From the IMG/VR virus record IMGVR_UViG_643886067_000001, positions 1 to 41,177 of that record: DNA of 41,177 bases. One strand, given 5' to 3'. The notes beneath the pieces are model-generated. The model worked only from the letters and a program-made list of their open reading frames with translations. It did no database searches and had not been told where the DNA came from. Every line of letters begins with the position of its first letter. Within the stretch, counting starts at the first letter, position 1. This document shows positions 11,977 through 40,003 of the stretch, piece after piece. The position numbers and the translations under genes are program-made. This DNA is from a virus (taxonomy: Duplodnaviria > Heunggongvirae > Uroviricota > Caudoviricetes).

Positions 11977-12158
11977 GAATCCTCCCGGCCGGGATAATAT
12001 TGTGAGTAAAATAAGGAGCGGGCTGAAGTCCGGAAGTTACAGGACAATGGCAGAAGAGAGACGACAGCCCGCAATTCGAAAAAGACCGCGCAGTTGCGCA
12101 GCCTTATGAATTCTGGTTAAAATCCATTCGATTATAAAAATGTATATCTCATGCTGTT

Positions 12159-12183
12159 GCCCGAACCCACTCGGGCTTTTTTT
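12159..12183 (+). terminator. Plus-strand intrinsic terminator-like hairpin
   Basis: GCCCGA-acccac-TCGGGC followed by TTTTTTT. Confidence 0.4.
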
Positions 12184-12184
12184 G

Positions 12185-12440
12185 CCCACAAGAAAGCCCC
12201 TCCGGAGAGGGGCTAAAGCCGCGTATCTGTATCATCATGCACATGGTGCCGGGTGCCTCCCGGTGAGTTCAGCCCGGTGCCACTAAACCCGCGTCATTCT
12301 CGTTTTGATAATCAGAGATTATACCGTCACCAGTCGCCCCTCCGCTCAGGGGGATTCACCATGCGAAATTTTTTTAACAAATGCCCAGTCTGACAGGCAA
12401 CTGTCAACTTACTGAATTGTGAGCAACATAGCATTTAACG
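12185..12440. repeat. Structured non-coding direct repeat, copy A
   Basis: Shares with copy B: hairpin AGCCCCTC-cgga-GAGGGGCT, GCATGGTGCCGGGTGCCTCCCGGTGAGTTCAG, CCCCTCCGC(T/A)CAGGGGGATTCACCATGC, CAAC(T/A)GTCAAC, CTGAATTGTGAG. Confidence 0.5.
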
Positions 12441-12674
12441 GGGAACCTGTTTTCTGCAGTAAAAAGGCCCACCGGAGCGGATGGGCCTGGAAGGATAGCG
12501 GTCATGTGATGCCGGTTTCCCGGTAACTCAGCACCGGTATCTGAGTCAACGTTTTCTCTACTGGGTCATTTCCGATACGCCCTGCCTGCTGACAGGCTTT
12601 CATCACATCTGAAAATATAGCACCCTGACTGATACTGTAGTACCTAAGGTTCCAGAAACTGTGATGTATCCGGC

Positions 12675-12920
12675 ACAGAAAAGCCCCTCCGGAGAGGGGC
12701 TGGAGAGTGGCACTATGTGCCATTGCATGGTGCCGGGTGCCTCCCGGTGAGTTCAGTATCAGCACCTGAACCCGCACAGAAAGGATAAGGGTCGGTGACA
12801 AAACACCAGTTGCTGATTGCCCCTCCGCACAGGGGGATTCACCATGCCAGTTTCTTTTAACAAACTCCCCGCAAACCAGACAACAGTCAACCGCCTGAAT
12901 TGTGAGGTATTTAAAAATTT
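12675..12920. repeat. Structured non-coding direct repeat, copy B
   Basis: Second copy of the same blocks ~490 bp from copy A; sequence between the conserved blocks diverges. Confidence 0.5.
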
Positions 12921-13704: not shown

Positions 13705-13781
13705 TGGCGCGTTGTACTGGATTCGAACCAGTGACCGATTGCTTAGAAGGCAATTGCTCTGTCCGGCTGAGCTAACAACGC
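13705..13781 (-). tRNA. argO: tRNA-Arg (anticodon UCU)
   Basis: 77 nt; hand-folded cloverleaf GCGTTGT-TA-GCTC...GAGC-A-ATTGC-CTTCTAA-GCAAT-...-TTCGAAT-...-ACAACGC-G-CCA. Confidence 0.8.
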
Positions 13782-13795
13782 AGAATGCCGATAAA

Positions 13796-13872
13796 TGGAC
13801 CGCCATCGAGGACTCGAACCCCGCGCAACCAGCTTCGAAGGCTGGCGCTCTATCCCGATGAGCTAATGGCGG
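13796..13872 (-). tRNA. argN: tRNA-Arg (anticodon UCG)
   Basis: 77 nt; cloverleaf with anticodon loop CTTCGAA, T-loop TTCGAGT, 3' CCA; unusual C1-G72 acceptor pair. Confidence 0.7.
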
Positions 13873-13881
13873 TATGTGATA

Positions 13882-13957
13882 TGGTGGCCCTTGCTGGATT
13901 TGAACCAGCGACCTGGCGATTATGAGTCGCTCGCTCTCACCACTGAGCTAAAGGGCC
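13882..13957 (-). tRNA. ileZ: tRNA-Ile2 (anticodon CAU, lysidine type; a scanner would call Met)
   Basis: 76 nt; near-identical in pattern to E. coli ileX (GGCCCTTTAGCTCAGTGGT...CTCATAA...TTCAAAT...GGGCCACCA). Confidence 0.8.
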
Positions 13958-20446: not shown

Positions 20447-20602
20447 TTACTCCTCAGGTTCGTAAGCTGTGAAGACAGCGACCTCCGTCTGGCCGGTTCG
20501 GATTCGTACCTCGCAGAGGTCTTTCCTCGTTACCAGTGCCGTCACAATGACGGTTAAACAGATGACGATCAGGGCGATTAGCATCGCCTTTTGCTGCTTC
20601 AT
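20447..20602 (-). CDS. hok: Hok/Gef-family type I toxin
   Basis: 51 aa MKQQKAMLIALIVICLTVIVTALVTRKDLCEVRIRTGQTEVAVFTAYEPEE, near-identical in pattern to HokC/Gef; hairpin at ~20415-20440 after stop. Confidence 0.85.
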   Translation of the reverse strand: MKQQKAMLIALIVICLTVIVTALVTRKDLCEVRIRTGQTEVAVFTAYEPEE

Positions 20603-20813
20603 AGCCTGCTTCTCCTTGCCTTTCGGCACGTAAGAGGCTAACCTACGTGTGTAGAGCATAGATATGGCCTCAGATTAATGTTAAGCGTCTTGCCGGACGC
20701 GTAATGTTAACTGGGGCTTTTCTCTATCTGCCTTTTGGTGTTCATGCCTGAGACAGATAGCCTCAAGCACCCGCTGCAATTCTACTTAACTCTCCTTTTC
20801 CCGCAAACCGTTT

Positions 20814-22646: not shown

Positions 22647-22821
22647 TTTGTTCTTCCTCTTCGTCTTTTATTTCGTGGTATGAGTAATTGCAGTAGTTAA
22701 AGAAAATATCTTTAGCTTCATCCTGTATTTCATCTGGTGTTGCATCATCATCCACTTCGAATTCATCCTCGAAATCTCCACCGGCTATTCCCGTTTCAAT
22801 AATTATTTTGAATTTTCGCAT
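22639..22821 (-). CDS. Hypothetical acidic small protein
   Basis: 60-aa ORF. Confidence 0.3.
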   Translation of the reverse strand: MRKFKIIIETGIAGGDFEDEFEVDDDATPDEIQDEAKDIFFNYCNYSYHEIKDEEEEQNG

Positions 22822-24409: not shown

Positions 24410-25180
24410 TCACTTTTCCGATACAACACGGCGGGAAGAATCAGTAATCTGTCGAACAATATCCCGGTGCTTGTTCACCTCCCGCAGCGCGGCGCAGACT
24501 CGCTCCCACTTCTGAACATCACTTTTCGCCCTGCGCAGCGCCAGGTTTGCCCTGCGAAGGGACGGAAAAATCAGCTCATCTGCTTGCGTTTCGGTAAACG
24601 ATGGCAACGGCTGCACAATGTCCGCCACAGTTTCTGTTTTAATTTCTTCCTGTGTTGCGGCTTCCCGGACTGGTAACGCAGCACCTGCTGGCTGAGGAAA
24701 GGCCTTACCATCACTTTCCGTTACCAGCGCGGCTTTCGGCTCTGCTGGTAAATTATCGCCCGGCATGCAGTAACGAAATTTACCGTTCTGATTAACGCGT
24801 GCCAGCCGCCCCGTTGCGGTTACCACCGCCAGCGTGGAGGCAACCTTGCGAGTACTGACGCCGAACTTACCCGCCAGTTCCTCACACGTTTTAGCACCAT
24901 CCTGACCGATAAACTCAATCATCATGTCTGCGGTAACTTTTTGTTCGACCTCCCCGGTCAGCATATCCTGTGCTTCAGATTTTACTGGCCGCTCTTCGGT
25001 TACCCGGGATTCACCTTCGCCAGCCAGAAACCAGGTGTGACCAGTTTTATCAACGACGCCATTTCTTTTGAGTTCCCACAGCTCGTTGAGAACCTCTTCA
25101 CGACTGATATCAAGTCGCGCGGCCAGTTCTACCGATGTGGCTTTTCCCATTGCTTTCAGTGCGTCAAATACGGTTTCCAT
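24410..25180 (-). CDS. Hypothetical protein with winged-helix-like repeats
   Basis: ATG 25180 with GGAGG 8 nt upstream; track start 25198 is TTG. Confidence 0.5.
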
Positions 25181-25213
25181 TAAAATTTCCTCCGACAAAA
25201 TCGTTTCTCAGAT

Positions 25214-25879
25214 TCAAATAAAACCAGCTGCCTTCCGGCGTTCGTATTCCTGTTTCAGCCGTTCAATTGGCGTTGGCCCTTGCGGGTGTTTCGCCCCTTC
25301 CAGTTGTCGTCGCACTGGCGGAACACTCATCCCGTTACCAACATGCTTTGCCCATTTCGTCAGTTGCCGTTCCGCAAGTCGTTTTAACTCACCCTGCGTC
25401 ATCTGGCGCTCAATCCCTCTGGTACGCATTTCGAGGCAGATGTGGTACAGCACAGGCTGAGGCCACGGATATTTGTCGCTTCCGTCATATCGCCAGGACT
25501 CATCACGCCAGCGGCGGTACTCCTCCATCACAGCATCCACCGTCAGGCCAAATGGATTGGCCCCGCTTTCTGAAATCAGCGCCACAAACTCAGCCAGGTC
25601 CGGAGGCCATGTTTCACCCGCCCGGCAGCGGTCCATGCACTGGCGGCAGACCTGTCGGATTTGCTGCTCAGTCATCGCGCCAATCTGTGCAATCCAGAGC
25701 TTCGAAGGTGCGGCCCCGTTCTTCTGGGTCCAGCGGTTCGAATAAACCTCCCCCATGAGTTCCCACAGCTTCCAGACCGTTTCCGTCGCTGATAAATCCG
25801 TTTTCACGTTCCCACTGCTCACGTGCTGCCCGAATTTCCTGAACTGCCCGTGATGCGGTGCCACCTGGTGCTGCTGCAT
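25214..25879 (-). CDS. Replication protein P-like (helicase loader)
   Basis: 221 aa; colinear similarity to lambda P (AEFVALI, YPWPQPVLYHICLEM, C-terminal basic region); ATG 25879 with GGGGG upstream. Confidence 0.65.
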   Translation of the reverse strand: MQQHQVAPHHGQFRKFGQHVSSGNVKTDLSATETVWKLWELMGEVYSNRWTQKNGAAPSKLWIAQIGAMTEQQIRQVCRQCMDRCRAGETWPPDLAEFVALISESGANPFGLTVDAVMEEYRRWRDESWRYDGSDKYPWPQPVLYHICLEMRTRGIERQMTQGELKRLAERQLTKWAKHVGNGMSVPPVRRQLEGAKHPQGPTPIERLKQEYERRKAAGFI

Positions 25880-26708
25880 GGTTTACCCCCTTGCTGACTG
25901 GCTTAACCTGCGCCCTGACGTGATTTACGTGACGGGCGAATTTCTGCTCCCACTGAACCTGCGTGAAAACTTTCCCCTCCGCTGCCCAGTAGTCCCGGAA
26001 AGCGGCAAGTTCAGCAGGTGTAAATTCCGGCTCCGGCAAAGCCATCCCCCACAACGCAGCCCGTCGTCGAAAATCCGGCGACGGATGCCAGTCATCGACC
26101 ATCGGAAATTTCCCGATGGGTTCGCTCAGTCCATCCAGGGATGCAGGTTCTGCTGCCTGCAACGGCGTACCACTCGACTCACTGGTCGGAGCACTCTCGC
26201 GCACGTGCGCGTTATGTGTGGGGTTTAATTCTTTATCTGTATCTTTATCTGTCGTGACTCGTCGTGACATGTCGTGACATATGCGTGACTCGTCGTGACA
26301 CCCCTCATTCTGTTTTCGTAATTTTTCCCTCTCGCGCTGCGCTCTCTTGCGCTCTGCCGGGGATTTCGCGGTTTGTGAAACGTTGCCATTGTCCTCTTTC
26401 AGTACCTGGCGTTTTTCCCATCCGGTGATTAAATCTCCATCAAGTACCCGCCCCTGCATTGCCTGTAAAATTGAATCAATTACTTCTTCCGTCACATCAA
26501 GCGCACTTGCTAAATCTTCCGTCGTGACATCAATGTGACCACGTAGTGACACGCCGTGACATGTCGTGACATTTCGTGACGCGCTCACCAGAAGGTGGAT
26601 ATACACTGCCATCACTGTTGCAATTGGCTGCCCTGACACCCTGGCAATTGTTCGCCACTTAGGGTCATTTGGCATGTCATGCCATAATCTGAGCCAGGCG
26701 TTAGCCAT
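25668..26708 (-). CDS. Replication initiator O-like protein (3' extent uncertain)
   Basis: ATG 26708 with GAGGTGA upstream; contains two iteron clusters; track frame overlaps the P-like start by ~210 nt. Confidence 0.6.
   Translation of the reverse strand: MANAWLRLWHDMPNDPKWRTIARVSGQPIATVMAVYIHLLVSASRNVTTCHGVSLRGHIDVTTEDLASALDVTEEVIDSILQAMQGRVLDGDLITGWEKRQVLKEDNGNVSQTAKSPAERKRAQREREKLRKQNEGCHDESRICHDMSRRVTTDKDTDKELNPTHNAHVRESAPTSESSGTPLQAAEPASLDGLSEPIGKFPMVDDWHPSPDFRRRAALWGMALPEPEFTPAELAAFRDYWAAEGKVFTQVQWEQKFARHVNHVRAQVKPVSKGVNHAAAPGGTASRAVQEIRAAREQWERENGFISDGNGLEAVGTHGGGLFEPLDPEERGRTFEALDCTDWRDD
26225..26299. repeat. Candidate replication origin: AT-rich tract plus five (T)CGTGAC iterons
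   Basis: TTAATTCTTTATCTGTATCTTTATCT then GTCGTGAC at 26251, 26261, 26271, 26282, 26292 (10-11 bp spacing), inside the O-like gene. Confidence 0.6.
26521..26580. repeat. Second iteron cluster (six CGTGAC-type repeats)
   Basis: Repeats at 26521, 26532, 26543, 26553, 26563, 26573 (10-11 bp spacing), in the N-terminal coding part of the O-like gene. Confidence 0.55.
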
Positions 26709-26779
26709 ACTCACCTCTTCTGATACCGAATCTTTTTACTCACAAATTGCCGGAAGTGATCCGGTATGAATATTGCGAG

Positions 26780-27205
26780 TCAATGCACAGCCACAATATT
26801 TCCTGCAGGGCCACCACGATTCATCTGGTTGAAACCAGCGATCGCCACTGCGACAAAATCATCAGCGTCTCTCACCAGTCGTTCCCGCGTCTCCACCAGC
26901 TCCCGAAAATAAGCTGAACTGTGGCTGCGCATTCGGGCCACCAGCAGAGGCGGCATTGCTTTTTCGATCGCTGGTAACAACGCCTGAATTTTTTTAACCG
27001 CATCAGGAGTGTCTTTCTCCACCCAGCGGAAAATTTTCTGGGTATTGCGAGCCAGGGCTTCCGGATGGCTGTCGTCATATAATTCCGGGAACGTCATACC
27101 AAGCTCAAAATAAGCCCGGGTTATTTCAGCTGCCGGAACTTTTTCACCGTCCGGATGCGCCCAGGCATTCATCGCCATGCGGATGTGCTCATGCCTGATT
27201 TTCAT
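26780..27205 (-). CDS. YdaT-like protein (Rac-type early gene)
   Basis: 141 aa MKIRHEHIRMAMNAWAHPDG...; GGAG upstream; overlaps the Cro-like gene by 17 nt. Confidence 0.55.
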   Translation of the reverse strand: MKIRHEHIRMAMNAWAHPDGEKVPAAEITRAYFELGMTFPELYDDSHPEALARNTQKIFRWVEKDTPDAVKKIQALLPAIEKAMPPLLVARMRSHSSAYFRELVETRERLVRDADDFVAVAIAGFNQMNRGGPAGNIVAVH

Positions 27206-27464
27206 GAATCAACTCCGATGCATTTGGTGTGTTAGCCTTGAATCCAACAGGTAAGCCGTCGGTTGGATTCGGGTAAATATCAGGCCGGAGTTCATGAGGT
27301 GTAACCTCGAAATTCGTTACTTCAGCAACACGTAATGCTTTTTCAGGGCTGAATCTTTCATAGCCCCCCAGCACTCGACTTACATGCACCTGAGATAAAC
27401 CCGTTAGCTTCCCAAACTGTAGCTGGGTGATATGTTTCTCTTTTAAATAGTCTCTTAAGTTCAT
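27189..27464 (-). CDS. Cro-like HTH regulator (YdaS-like)
   Basis: ATG 27464 (track start 27470 is TTG); HTH QLQFGKLTGLSQVHVSRVL; divergent from repressor gene. Confidence 0.6.
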   Translation of the reverse strand: MNLRDYLKEKHITQLQFGKLTGLSQVHVSRVLGGYERFSPEKALRVAEVTNFEVTPHELRPDIYPNPTDGLPVGFKANTPNASELIHENQA

Positions 27465-27571
27465 AGCCAACCTTCTACGTTATGCCTCGAGCAAATATTA
27501 GCCCCGCTAATTTTAAAGATCAATAGCCAGACTATCTTTGATAATATTGGTAAAACAAATAAACTCTATGT
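27465..27571. promoter_or_regulatory. Immunity-region operator/promoter interval
   Basis: Palindromes ATTAGC-ccc-GCTAAT (27507-27521) and ATAG-ccaga-CTAT between divergent cro-like and repressor genes. Confidence 0.5.
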
Positions 27572-28033
27572 ATGAAAAAAACACGCGAAGTGATTGCAAC
27601 TCCAGAAGCGAGCAAGAATTTAAAAGCCGCATGGAATGCAAGAAAAAAAGAGCTGAAGCTGACTCAAGAGCTGGCGGCTGAGTTGTTGGGATTCGAATCT
27701 CAAGGCACCGTTAGCCAGTATCTGAACGGCAAGATACCGGTAAATACCGACGCTGCGCTAAAATTTGCGGCTCTGTTAAAGGTAAAACCAGAGGACATTC
27801 GAGAAGACCTTAAAGACTTAATGAATTATGTAAGATCATCAGATACTTATGATGATAACTTTTCAGGCAAAGGATGGAGGCTGGTCAATGAAGAACAGGC
27901 AGAGTTACTTAACCTCTTCGAGATTCTACCTGCGTCAGAAAAAGCCAAACTCCTTAACCAGCTACGTGGACTAAACAAGCTCTACGAGGAAGCCTTCGAG
28001 AACATGCTGGCACTAAAGAAACGTAACCAGTAG
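27572..28033 (+). CDS. Prophage repressor, XRE-family HTH, no S24 peptidase domain
   Basis: 153 aa; HTH LTQELAAELLGFESQGTVSQYLNGK; no Shine-Dalgarno before ATG (possibly leaderless); C-terminal half lacks the Ser/Lys autocleavage module. Confidence 0.65.
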   Translation: MKKTREVIATPEASKNLKAAWNARKKELKLTQELAAELLGFESQGTVSQYLNGKIPVNTDAALKFAALLKVKPEDIREDLKDLMNYVRSSDTYDDNFSGKGWRLVNEEQAELLNLFEILPASEKAKLLNQLRGLNKLYEEAFENMLALKKRNQ

Positions 28034-28060
28034 CCACCGCTCACTACCCCATCCACAACA

Positions 28061-28090
28061 AAAAAACCGACGTCTTAGTCGGTTTTTTTG
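28061..28090. terminator. Bidirectional intrinsic terminator after repressor gene
   Basis: AAAAAAA-CCGAC-gtctta-GTCGG-TTTTTTT. Confidence 0.6.
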
Positions 28091-28186
28091 TGCCATAACT
28101 TCTGCAAATCAGCTGTATAACTAATATTTTTCCCTTGAAAAAACATTTACATAGTTACCAAATCAAAAATATCATACGCCATACTG

Positions 28187-29402: not shown

Positions 29403-29964
29403 TTCACCCTCCTGAGGGTTGGTGATTAAGGAGTTCTCCACGGGTGAGGTGGAGTGCGTGCGCCGGACACGGGTGAGCATCCGGCACTGACAGTTTACTG
29501 AAAGGATATTTCCCTGAAAAGTCAGACCATAACGCGAAAGCGCTCGGCGAGGTAGCTGGTTCATAGATAGCCTGTCGTTAAATTTTCGTCGACCGTGCGC
29601 TTCCGGTTGTGGCAATCCGCGAAATGGCGCGGCGGTAAGTATGGCGGGGTTATTCCTTCCCCCGTTGAGGACACCGGGTTGTCAGGTTGACCATACGCTT
29701 AAGTGACAACCCCGCTGCAACGCCCTCTGTTATCAATTTTCTGGTGACGTTTGGCGGTATCAGTTTTACTCCGTGACTGCTCTGCCGCCCTTTTTAAAGT
29801 GAATTTTGTGATGTGGTGAATGCGGCTGAGCGCACGCGGAACAGTTAAAACCAAAAACAGTGTTATGGGTGGATTCTCTGTATCCGGCGTTAATTGTTAA
29901 CTGGTTAACGTCACCTGGAGGCACCAGGCACCGCATCACAAAATTCATTGTTGAGGACGCGATA

Positions 29965-39150: not shown

Positions 39151-39341
39151 TAACTCAGTTTGTGGGCATGCTTCACTGAAACAGATAAAAGTTACATCAG
39201 AGTGCAGATTCAATTTTGCAGCATTCGTCACAAAATAAAAATCCAGCATTTTATGTCAGAATACCTCACATGATAATAAAACCTGTCCGGTTTTACTGCA
39301 TGGCCAGACATTATACAAAAGCAAATCCTGTAAACTCCATT

Positions 39342-39378
39342 CAGCCTCCTTGCTATCCGGTAACGGAGGCTGTTTTTT
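39342..39378 (+). terminator. Intrinsic terminator-like hairpin
   Basis: CAGCCTCC-ttgctatccggtaac-GGAGGCTG followed by TTTTTT. Confidence 0.4.
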
Positions 39379-39424
39379 CGTTACGCCTTTCCCCGGCAGC
39401 ATCAGTAGCAGTAATTTATAGATT

Positions 39425-40003
39425 CTACGAACTGAGACTGTCTGTCCGGGGAGAACATACGTAACCCGGCGCAAGGCTCCTGTCAATTACCTCCGGCCTC
39501 TGCTCCCTTGGTTGCCAGACAGAGTCTCTGACGACCATGCTTTCAGTGTCAGCGCCAGTGATATAAGACGGTAAATGGGGATGCGGACGATTTCCTGTAT
39601 CACGTCTGTTGGCGCTTAGCCTCAGAATATCCACCACCAGACGCTGACTGTCTGACCAAAACAGGCCGTTCAGTGCGATCACCTGCAATCCCGTTTCCAG
39701 CGCATACTTCAGTCGTTCACGGGGCGCTTTCACTTCCCGGGCAATTTGCTGCCATGGCGATGATGTATTTTCACTCCCAACCATCCGGCGAATACGATGA
39801 GACAGATGATACCGGAATATATCCGGCACACCAGAAAGACTGGCTTTCAGGCTGTACACGCAGCCAAACCGTTTATCGTTGAACACCACATTTTTCTGGC
39901 TGATATCCCATGCTTCCCGAAGTGTAACAATCAGCTGTGGCGTCCGGGTTAAAAGCAGACGAAAAGGCAGTTCAAAACTGGTGACGTAATCCACATTCAG
40001 CAA
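39425..40003 (-). CDS. Hypothetical protein, possibly distal fragment of a disrupted gene
   Basis: 192-aa ORF; out of frame with the ORF at 40236-40748; no family recognised. Confidence 0.3.
   Translation of the reverse strand: MLNVDYVTSFELPFRLLLTRTPQLIVTLREAWDISQKNVVFNDKRFGCVYSLKASLSGVPDIFRYHLSHRIRRMVGSENTSSPWQQIAREVKAPRERLKYALETGLQVIALNGLFWSDSQRLVVDILRLSANRRDTGNRPHPHLPSYITGADTESMVVRDSVWQPREQRPEVIDRSLAPGYVCSPRTDSLSS

Follow-up and report, generated by a model that had tools for sequence, protein, structure and literature searches.

The lambdoid prophage sequence IMGVR_UViG_643886067_000001 (41,177 nt, the whole of which is referred to here as the window) carries on its minus strand a replication initiator gene that contains, within its own coding sequence, two separate arrays of short direct repeats (iterons), a single inverted copy of the same repeat and an AT-rich tract (Table 1). 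The genes on this strand follow one another in the order cro-like gene, cII-like gene, initiator, P-like helicase loader and a DUF1627 gene, and transcription from the cro side crosses array 2 first and array 1 second. A preliminary description of this DNA had reported two iteron clusters inside the replication gene, and was correct as to their coordinates, their copy numbers (5 and 6) and their spacing.

Table 1. Genes and sequence features of the replication region, in coordinates of the window.
Feature	Position	Strand	Remarks
Replication initiator gene	25668..26708	-	346 aa from ATG at 26708; in-frame GTG at 26714
Array 1	26251..26300	-	Five iterons, 10-11 bp apart; codons 137-152
Array 2	26521..26583	-	Six iterons, core GTCAC(G) on coding strand, 10-11 bp apart; codons 43-62
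Inverted single core copy	26491..26495	+	GTCAC on + strand, i.e. GTGAC on coding strand; gene nt 214
AT-rich tract	26225..26252		(GATAAA/GATACA)n on coding strand, encodes DKDTDKE; putative DNA-unwinding element
GC-rich perfect palindrome	26198..26211		CGCGCACGTGCGCG; 14 nt beyond AT tract
Lambda-P-like helicase loader gene	25214..25675	-	Pfam PF06992, E 5.2e-16; phrog_109, P-like helicase loader
cII-like gene	27205..26780	-	YdaT
cro-like gene	27470..27189	-	YdaS/HTH_3
cI-like repressor gene	27572..28033	+	HTH_3; divergently transcribed

On the coding strand the unit of the iterons can be written as (A/G)(T/A)GTCACGAC, and both arrays have the same orientation. Read on the plus strand, GTGAC begins at positions 26254, 26264, 26274, 26285 and 26295 in array 1 (spacing 10, 10, 11 and 10) and at 26524, 26535, 26546, 26556, 26566 and 26576 in array 2 (spacing 11, 11, 10, 10 and 10). 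The mean spacing of 10.25 bp and 10.4 bp, respectively, corresponds to approximately one helical turn, and the two arrays are separated by 229 bp. The longer form CGTGAC is present in all five copies of array 1 and in four of the six copies of array 2, the remaining two being TGTGAC and AGTGAC. Across the whole window CGTGAC is not over-represented (20 sites versus 16.6 expected), and 9 of these 20 sites lie, on a single strand, between 26253 and 26580 (∼330 bp). Three or more copies of GTGAC or GTCAC within 60 nt are found nowhere else in the 41-kb window besides the two arrays, and the Poisson chance per position, taken from the background rate, is 1e-9 for at least five copies and 8e-12 for at least six. 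Tandem Repeats Finder reports period-10 arrays at 26251-26299 and 26546-26580, as well as a 12-nt tandem TCTTTATCTGTA in two copies at 26230-26252. The inverted GTGAC copy is situated 33 nt downstream of array 2 within D-V-T codons, and GTGAC is kept at the homologous position in most relatives with GTCAC-type repeats; its Val codon is GTG in 18 of the 18 sequences that have Val there, and at one locus with GTAAC-type repeats (L030) the same position reads GTTAC, in keeping with the repeat type of that locus. The only other 5-mer of the window to occur five times within 60 nt is TCATC at 22718-22780, a region that belongs to the four 100-nt bins in which any 5-mer is present at least 4 times in 60 nt.

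Homologues of the N-terminal domain (N-domain) of the initiator were collected from 38 species-level genomes, viral contigs and annotated phages, and about 60 diverged homologues were compared. The 38 genomes include members of Enterobacterales, Pseudomonas, Bordetella, Chromobacterium, Acidovorax, Sphingomonas and others, and the GC content of the locus ranges from 33 to 69%. In most homologues GTCAC is found at nt 129, 139, 149 and 160 of the gene, and then again at approximately nt 387-430. A codon alignment was made of the 21 genes with GTCACG-type repeats, which are 59-68% identical to the window at the nucleotide level (one of them 84%) and come from loci of 34-69% GC, and the entropy of third positions was compared at conserved codons with 4- or 6-fold degeneracy. 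Mean third-position entropy in the 21 genes was 0.12 bit in the repeat cores versus 1.59 bit elsewhere (Mann-Whitney test, p = 4.6e-5), with ordinary conserved Val, Thr, Gly, Ser, Pro, Ala, Arg and Leu codons at 1.3-2.0 bit. Codons inside the cores are essentially invariant (GTC, GGT, TCA, GCG). In array 2, V47 is encoded by GTC, T48 by ACG, G57 by GGT and V61 by GTC in 21 of 21 genes, and S44 by TCA in 20 of 21; in array 1, S148 (TCA) and V151 (GTC) are likewise fixed in 21 of 21. Folding of the RNA of both array regions gave no significant structure (z = +0.41 and -1.44). Since synonymous sites are frozen within the cores and RNA structure is insignificant, the repeats are selected as DNA, and both arrays are under purifying selection at the DNA level.

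The initiator, whose annotated start in relatives is MANAWLRLW, was modelled with AlphaFold2 from 69 sequences. The model features a confident, helical, winged-helix-like N-domain (aa 1-∼100), followed by a long basic helix (aa 117-135), a disordered linker and a C-terminal domain (C-domain). The sole Pfam match of the protein at E <= 0.01 is to DnaT (PF17948, aa 203-269, E 9.6e-18), with no significant Pfam match to a replisome organizer N-domain. The C-domain of the model superposes on residues 84-153 of E. coli DnaT (Foldseek match to 4ou6, E 2e-5, target-normalised TM-score 0.93, 58% identity), and its sequence is 56-59% identical to the single-stranded DNA-binding domain of host DnaT (4ou6, 6aeq). 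Such closeness exceeds what would be expected from an ancient shared fold, and the sequence comparison suggests that genes have been exchanged between host and phage. Equivalence to host DnaT over the full length was considered and rejected: the NCBIfam model for DnaT (NF002770) reaches 97 bits where its cutoff is 201, and covers profile positions 80-166 only, and the N-terminal 190 aa are unrelated. Among PHROGs, the initiator matches the generically annotated "replication initiation protein" families phrog_1408 and phrog_3729, and more weakly phrog_4880 ("replisome organizer", E 4e-5) and phrog_10469 ("DnaD-like helicase loader", E 2.4e-7); its relatives bear the name "phage replisome organizer" at NCBI. 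The designation "O-like" given to this gene in the preliminary description is appropriate with respect to position and role but not with respect to homology, as no similarity to lambda O was detected in the Pfam (E <= 0.01) and NCBIfam scans, in which DnaT was the only match.

Placed on this model, array 2 encodes a loop or short beta segment between two helices (H29-45 and H63-70) of the DNA-binding domain (pLDDT ∼70), and array 1 together with the AT tract (codons 153-161) falls within the disordered interdomain linker (pLDDT 46-60). Both arrays are thus predicted to occupy positions at which the protein structure tolerates change. As a result of the unit length of 10-11 nt, translation reads the same core in each of the three frames, in array 1 as C-H-D / E-S-R / C-H-D / M-S-R / V-T-T and across the arrays as V-T, x-H-D/E and x-S-R, such that selection at the level of the protein cannot explain the repeats. 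The copy number of the arrays is variable. Most relatives have four copies in array 2, and the six present in the window, in O157-type prophages and in E. albertii arise through a 21-nt insertion, i.e. two units or seven codons (TCHGVSL). In other lineages, extra repeats have been inserted into the array-2 loop as 14 or 22 additional residues. Among close E. coli relatives the copy number of array 1 is 4, 5, 6 or 9, and the reading frame is kept in every case. Loop and linker therefore act as length-tolerant slots for a DNA element. Array 1 has grown to 9 copies in the IMG/VR contig 2563366853_000009 (L098) and to 8 copies in an environmental contig (L240), and such expanded arrays give peptide runs such as CHAHVTTCHDESRTCHDESRTCHDVSRHVTT.

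A second line of evidence comes from the repeat sequence itself. Three repeat types (GTCACG, GTAACG and CGAACG) are found in the family, and they switch together in both arrays. The GTAACG type is present at loci L008, L026, L030, L036, L149 and L205, and the CGAACG(C) type at L033, L035, L037 and L040 and in many environmental viral contigs. At all 33 of the 33 species-level loci with repeats in both array positions, the same core (GTCAC, GTAAC or GAACG) is dominant in the two arrays. A motif-agnostic hexamer scan of 61 non-redundant representatives, with zone A defined as nt 100-250 of the gene and zone B as nt 321-600, found a hexamer present at least 3 times in zone A in 50 of the 61; in 46 of these 50, the same hexamer occurs at least twice in zone B. 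The density of the shared hexamer is 11.7/kb in zone B versus 0.86/kb in the remainder of the gene. The switch can be followed most closely between an Erwinia locus of the GTCACG type (L015) and loci of Pantoea and Enterobacter of the GTAACG type (L026, L030), whose N-domains are 75-80% identical to that of the former. The third base of the core is changed from C to A at homologous positions in most copies of both arrays, with a few copies retaining the other core; the change leaves the amino acid intact in Val codons (GTC to GTA) and converts His to Asn in the second frame. GTAACG repeats are found on two protein backgrounds that differ by the presence or absence of a 9-residue insertion behind the wing, which indicates that the switch occurred more than once.

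As the arrays co-vary, one sequence-specific reader must recognise both. The N-domain is the sole gene product constantly linked to the arrays: the genes upstream vary among relatives, and the downstream partner may be a P-like loader, a DnaC-like loader or a DnaB helicase. The YdaU protein of phage Rac-SA53 (L003, 1569-2639) is instructive in this respect. It has the same C-domain, an AT tract encoding KDTDTD and a GC-rich element, together with a DUF1376-type N-domain, but no iteron-like arrays are found within its ydaU gene. The arrays thus go with the N-domain and not with the C-domain, and the origin-recognition sites of Rac-SA53 ydaU must be organised differently.

In the window, the 40 nt that follow array 1 have a GC content of 0.30. 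In all 21 GTCACG-type genes this stretch consists of (GATAAA/GATACA)n, with a mean GC content of 0.26 versus 0.55 for the gene, and genes with a GC content as high as 65-68% still have 0.28-0.33 there. The segment 26211-26250 is the least stable 40-mer of the region 25200-27300 (-45.1 kcal/mol, compared to a mean of -57.2 and a standard deviation of 3.5). The GC-rich palindrome beyond the AT tract differs between relatives and is mostly still palindromic, as in CGCGCATGCGCG, CGCGCA-TG-TGCGCG or CGCGC-GG-GCGCG, with only (CG)4 left in some; it is possibly an element of the origin. A conserved AAACCCCACACATAA lies between palindrome and AT tract. The tract also coincides with breaks in homology. 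In megablast comparisons, similarity to relatives that share only the N-terminal half of the gene (689R5, Evi, Tritos and a UTI89 prophage) begins at 26230 of the window, and similarity to those that share only the C-terminal half and the P-like gene (Rac-SA53, PPompW) stops at 26234-26250. This indicates that the AT tract is at the same time the mosaic recombination junction between the N-terminal and C-terminal modules of the gene. Scanning of 25100-28100 for promoters and terminators gave fewer matches than shuffled sequences and none at the arrays, with no sigma-70-like promoter in or near either array. A search for DnaA boxes (TTWTNCACA, up to one mismatch) returned no site in or beside the arrays, and a search of the whole window against Rfam returned no RNA family in 25200-27500. 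The lambdoid origin layout attributed to array 1 in the preliminary description is borne out, since the array is situated in the interdomain linker and transcription from it leads first into the AT-rich tract and then, further downstream, to a P-like loader gene.

Both arrays are very probably functional sites for one DNA-binding protein, and on the evidence of sequence this protein is quite likely the N-domain of the initiator. Replication would probably start at array 1 and its AT tract. The N-domain would bind the 10-11-bp iteron (core GTCACG on the coding strand) in both arrays. By analogy with ori-lambda, initiators stacked on one face of the helix at array 1 may distort the DNA and open the AT tract, and the C-terminal domain may then bring in the P-like loader and host DnaB, in the manner of lambda O and P. 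Array 2, with its six direct copies and one inverted copy, has no unwinding element attached. It would be an auxiliary cis-acting array for the same initiator, which may raise the local initiator concentration or loop to array 1. This positive action is the least certain step, and a stimulatory rather than restraining role of array 2 stands at even odds once the preceding steps are granted. Overall, we assign a probability of roughly 0.45 to the complete chain, i.e. a bipartite lambdoid prophage replication origin including an auxiliary array 2.

A more demanding version of the same proposal, in which the bipartite origin is obligatory and self-referential, with array 2 required in cis and looping to array 1 as do crr and ori in phage P4, appears improbable. 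If it were true, a change in the iterons would alter site and reader residue together, as array 2 encodes a surface loop of its own reader. The loop carries the peptide RGH at GTCACG-type repeats and RGR at CGAACG-type repeats, and the GTC/GTA switch is accompanied by a change at the H/N codon. It is tempting to speculate that specificity and site would in this case co-evolve through the same nucleotides, which would explain the repeated emergence of new origin specificities in the family.

Several observations weigh against the proposed bipartite origin. The function of this family of arrays and initiators is deduced from sequence, and the data fit a negative role of array 2 as well as a positive one. 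Similarity of the N-domain model to solved winged-helix proteins and to plasmid RepA_N initiators is weak (Foldseek E > 0.3). Three homologous loci (L029, L034 and L038) are devoid of array 2 and retain only 1-2 degenerate copies in array 1, and two others (L039 and L041) feature an unrelated repeat at zone B only, so that array 2 is not universal. The arrays are 229 bp apart in the clade of the window and between 195 and 319 bp apart in other clades, and no constant helical phase is kept. This argues against a rigid looped architecture; a loop of fixed phase between the arrays was dropped from consideration on these grounds. Moreover, iteron plasmids have operator-type inverted repeats, to which the conserved inverted half-site next to array 2 is similar. 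As a side observation, the two loci with the unrelated repeat (from Serratia and Pantoea) have the same N-domain fused to a different C-terminal part (YYVY...GIS.NPWAR), with a ACTACGTAGTA-like repeat at nt 320-470 of the gene, i.e. at the zone-B position only, and no loop array.

The alternative that best survives, although we consider it rather unlikely, is that the same initiator uses array 2 for negative control. The array could act through handcuffing with array 1 or with a sister copy, through titration of the initiator, or as a roadblock for RNA polymerase coming from the cro-side promoter, and would thereby limit both the synthesis of initiator and loader and the transcriptional activation of the origin, on the model of RK2 (5+3+1), P1 (incC/incA) and F (incB/incC). 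Array 2 indeed matches array 1 in sequence and orientation with no unwinding element of its own, and its location near the 5′ end of the operon segment for initiator and loader means that every transcript crosses it. The conserved inverted half-site 33 nt away, with its Val codon fixed as GTG, can be likened to the inverted repeats that serve autorepression by Rep in iteron plasmids, and the overall layout of 5 + 6(4) + 1 inverted copies resembles that of RK2 oriV. Nevertheless, a temperate phage needs fast, runaway replication once induced, and restraint is not obviously useful to it. The module is also rare on plasmids, with only 11 records in the plasmid collection, mostly large plasmids or phage-like circles of ∼50 kb; a function as a plasmid maintenance module was rejected on the basis of this count. 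No promoter-like signal overlaps array 2. Known extra or distant iterons of phages are stimulatory, as in the case of crr in P4. The same applies to iterons 1′ and 1″ of Stx phages (PMC7466680).

Other explanations fare less well. The arrays could be bound by a different protein, such as the YdaT-type cII-like activator or a host factor, for control of transcription and not of replication, and serve an internal or antisense promoter comparable to lambda paQ or pRE. The sites of lambda cII are direct repeats at 10-bp spacing (TTGC-N6-TTGC). The direct repeats of the arrays, also at 10 bp, would fit such sites, and the cII-like gene is located directly upstream in the window. However, the number of copies is 4-9 per array compared to the two needed by a cII-type site, and no sigma-70-like promoter is found in or near either array. 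Inspection by eye, with no use of Pfam, revealed no apparent YdaT-like sequence in the upstream open reading frames (ORFs) of Pseudomonas, Bordetella, Chromobacterium and other relatives, and the downstream loaders also differ among relatives with the same arrays. The type of repeat changes with N-domain lineages. As to a host factor, its specificity would not vary among the phages of one host, whereas GTCACG and GTAACG are both found in Enterobacterales. Binding by another protein is accordingly regarded as quite unlikely.

Even less probable is that array 2 is a second, independent origin, as envisaged by the "duplicated origin" option of the preliminary description. Array 2 has as many iterons as array 1 or more, and phage SPP1 provides an example of two origins bound by one organizer (PMC6316719). 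In the window, moreover, the segment 26462-26501 just downstream of array 2 is the second least stable 40-mer, with a GC content of 0.35. This low stability is not conserved in relatives, however: mean GC in the 40 nt after array 2 is 0.53 in the 21 relatives, close to the gene mean of 0.55 and far from the value of 0.26 after array 1. The stretch in question encodes conserved helices of the DNA-binding domain, and neither a (GATAAA)n tract nor a GC palindrome is found at array 2. The duplicated-origin option is disfavoured for lack of a conserved AT-rich tract at array 2. Least probable of all is that the repeats are a mere coding by-product with no function as DNA, be it through a periodic peptide or through gene conversion with concerted evolution. 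Translation indeed covers both arrays, and the motifs NVT, RGH, DVT, ESR, CHD and VTT are conserved in the protein, but synonymous positions are frozen only within the cores, the core is read in three frames, the synonymous GTC-to-GTA flip is concerted over both arrays, the encoded segments are a loop of variable length and a disordered linker, homologues without array 2 retain only "ERG" at that loop, and the RNA structure of the array regions is insignificant, so that the simple coding periodicity which the preliminary description had named as a possible objection is rejected by near-invariant synonymous sites in 21 homologues and by the co-variation of the arrays.

Turning to the genes around the initiator, the true start of the P-like loader gene is likely at 25675, with an 8-nt overlap with the stop of the initiator gene. 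A RefSeq-annotated relative has a loader of 153 aa with the same 8-nt overlap and a start equivalent to 25675. The loader ORF is also readable from an ATG at 25879, which gives an overlap of ∼210 nt with the initiator gene (25668-25879); this long form is probably an artefact or an upstream extension. One protein family, phrog_15931 (482 aa), matches initiator and loader as though they were fused. The 1.2 kb from 25600 to 26800 of the window are 100% identical to prophages of E. coli strains 118UI and 755. Elsewhere in the window, Rfam matches are located at 12129-12876, 13708-13957, 20597-20772, 29739-29790 and 39300-39481. The RNA families found elsewhere in the prophage comprise two STnc100, AsxR (an anti-stx2 small RNA), three tRNA genes, a sok antitoxin RNA, DicF and AS-pc02.

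The initiator family is large, with 1841 clusters at 50% identity in public data, of which 914 at E <= 1e-10. Of 5426 complete E. coli genomes, 2562 have a match to some part of the 1.2-kb region, although in many of them only one half of the gene is shared. The N-domain is found in only 25 deposited phage genomes, none of them of a model phage, and the hosts of the family include pathogenic E. coli, in the form of prophages, as well as Pseudomonas, Bordetella, Chromobacterium and others with their phages. Very many database entries for the initiator are labelled "partial", on contigs ending inside the gene. This probably arises from the presence of several prophages per genome that share the mosaic gene and break short-read assemblies.

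A search of the literature, including one with the repeat sequence, retrieved no description of the origin of this family, which is not proof that none exists. The feature for which we have found no earlier description is the presence of a second conserved array in the stretch of the initiator gene that encodes the DNA-binding domain of the initiator itself. Lambda-type phage origins are known from textbooks as a single iteron array with an AT tract; this family keeps a second array, and its members probably have a two-part origin instead of the single array of lambda. It thus offers a natural system to study the role of distal iterons in a lytic replicon, be it as a loading enhancer or as a brake. 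Array 2 can be removed by synonymous recoding with no change in the protein, which allows unusually clean genetics, and the gene clearly illustrates how a protein code and a DNA code can overlap, with a constraint on synonymous sites that can be measured. The three naturally switched specificities (GTCACG, GTAACG and CGAACG) lend themselves to studies of the co-evolution of initiator and origin and of the emergence of prophage incompatibility groups. On a practical level, the positions of the origin and of the recombination junction in this common prophage replication module can be read from the arrays, and several prophages of this kind are often present in one E. coli genome. These features will be of interest to specialists of phage replication and as an example of overlapping codes, and they overturn nothing.

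Lambda O consists of an N-terminal module for origin specificity and a C-terminal module for loader specificity. The corresponding origin, ori-lambda, comprises four 18-bp iterons and a 38-bp AT-rich tract inside the O gene (PMC3349717). The region described here is similar in that an iteron array lies within the initiator's own gene, in the linker between the N-terminal origin-binding and the C-terminal loader-binding modules, with an AT-rich tract next to the iterons in the direction of transcription and a P-like loader gene immediately downstream. The gene order (cro-like, cII-like, initiator, loader) and the boundary of recombination modules at the origin are also shared (lambda: PMC3349717, PMC7466680). 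Unlike in lambda, the initiator shows no detectable homology to O and has a DnaT-like C-domain, the units are 10-11 bp long and spaced one per helical turn compared to the 18-19 bp of lambda, and there are two arrays 229 bp apart, the second in sequence coding for the DNA-binding domain, where lambda has only one. In the Stx phages 933W and P27, six iterons are present, and the extra ones, which encode additional amino acids of the initiator, are bound weakly, yet replication depends on them (PMC7466680). These origins represent the nearest lambdoid precedent for auxiliary stimulatory iterons beyond the set located by the AT tract. Their extra iterons, however, are contiguous with the main array and belong to a true lambda O homologue, whereas a domain-coding gap of 229 bp separates the arrays here.

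Outside the lambdoid phages, the direct repeats bound by the organizer G38P of SPP1 form two discrete sites, oriL, which lies within gene 38, and oriR (PMC6316719). As in the present case, one phage initiator is associated with two repeat regions, one of them within its own gene. In SPP1, ∼13 kb lie between the two sites, and an AT-rich unwinding element is present at each of them, whereas here both arrays are found in one gene with one tract. Phage P4 has a bipartite origin in which the same short iteron is present in ori and crr, both of which are bound by the initiator, and crr is required. There, ∼4.5 kb separate ori from crr, the alpha protein that serves as initiator is a primase-helicase, and neither site has been reported to encode part of a DNA-binding domain. 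Split sets of one iteron are also known from plasmids, i.e. RK2 oriV (5+3+1 inverted), P1 (incC/incA) and F (incB/incC), in which the second array modulates initiation as a brake on copy number. The likeness to these plasmids lies in the fact that only the array next to the AT-rich element is the origin proper, and in the isolated inverted copy. The plasmid arrays, in contrast, are intergenic and flank rep, their Rep proteins belong to other families, and a copy-number brake is not an obvious need for a phage origin in the lytic phase.

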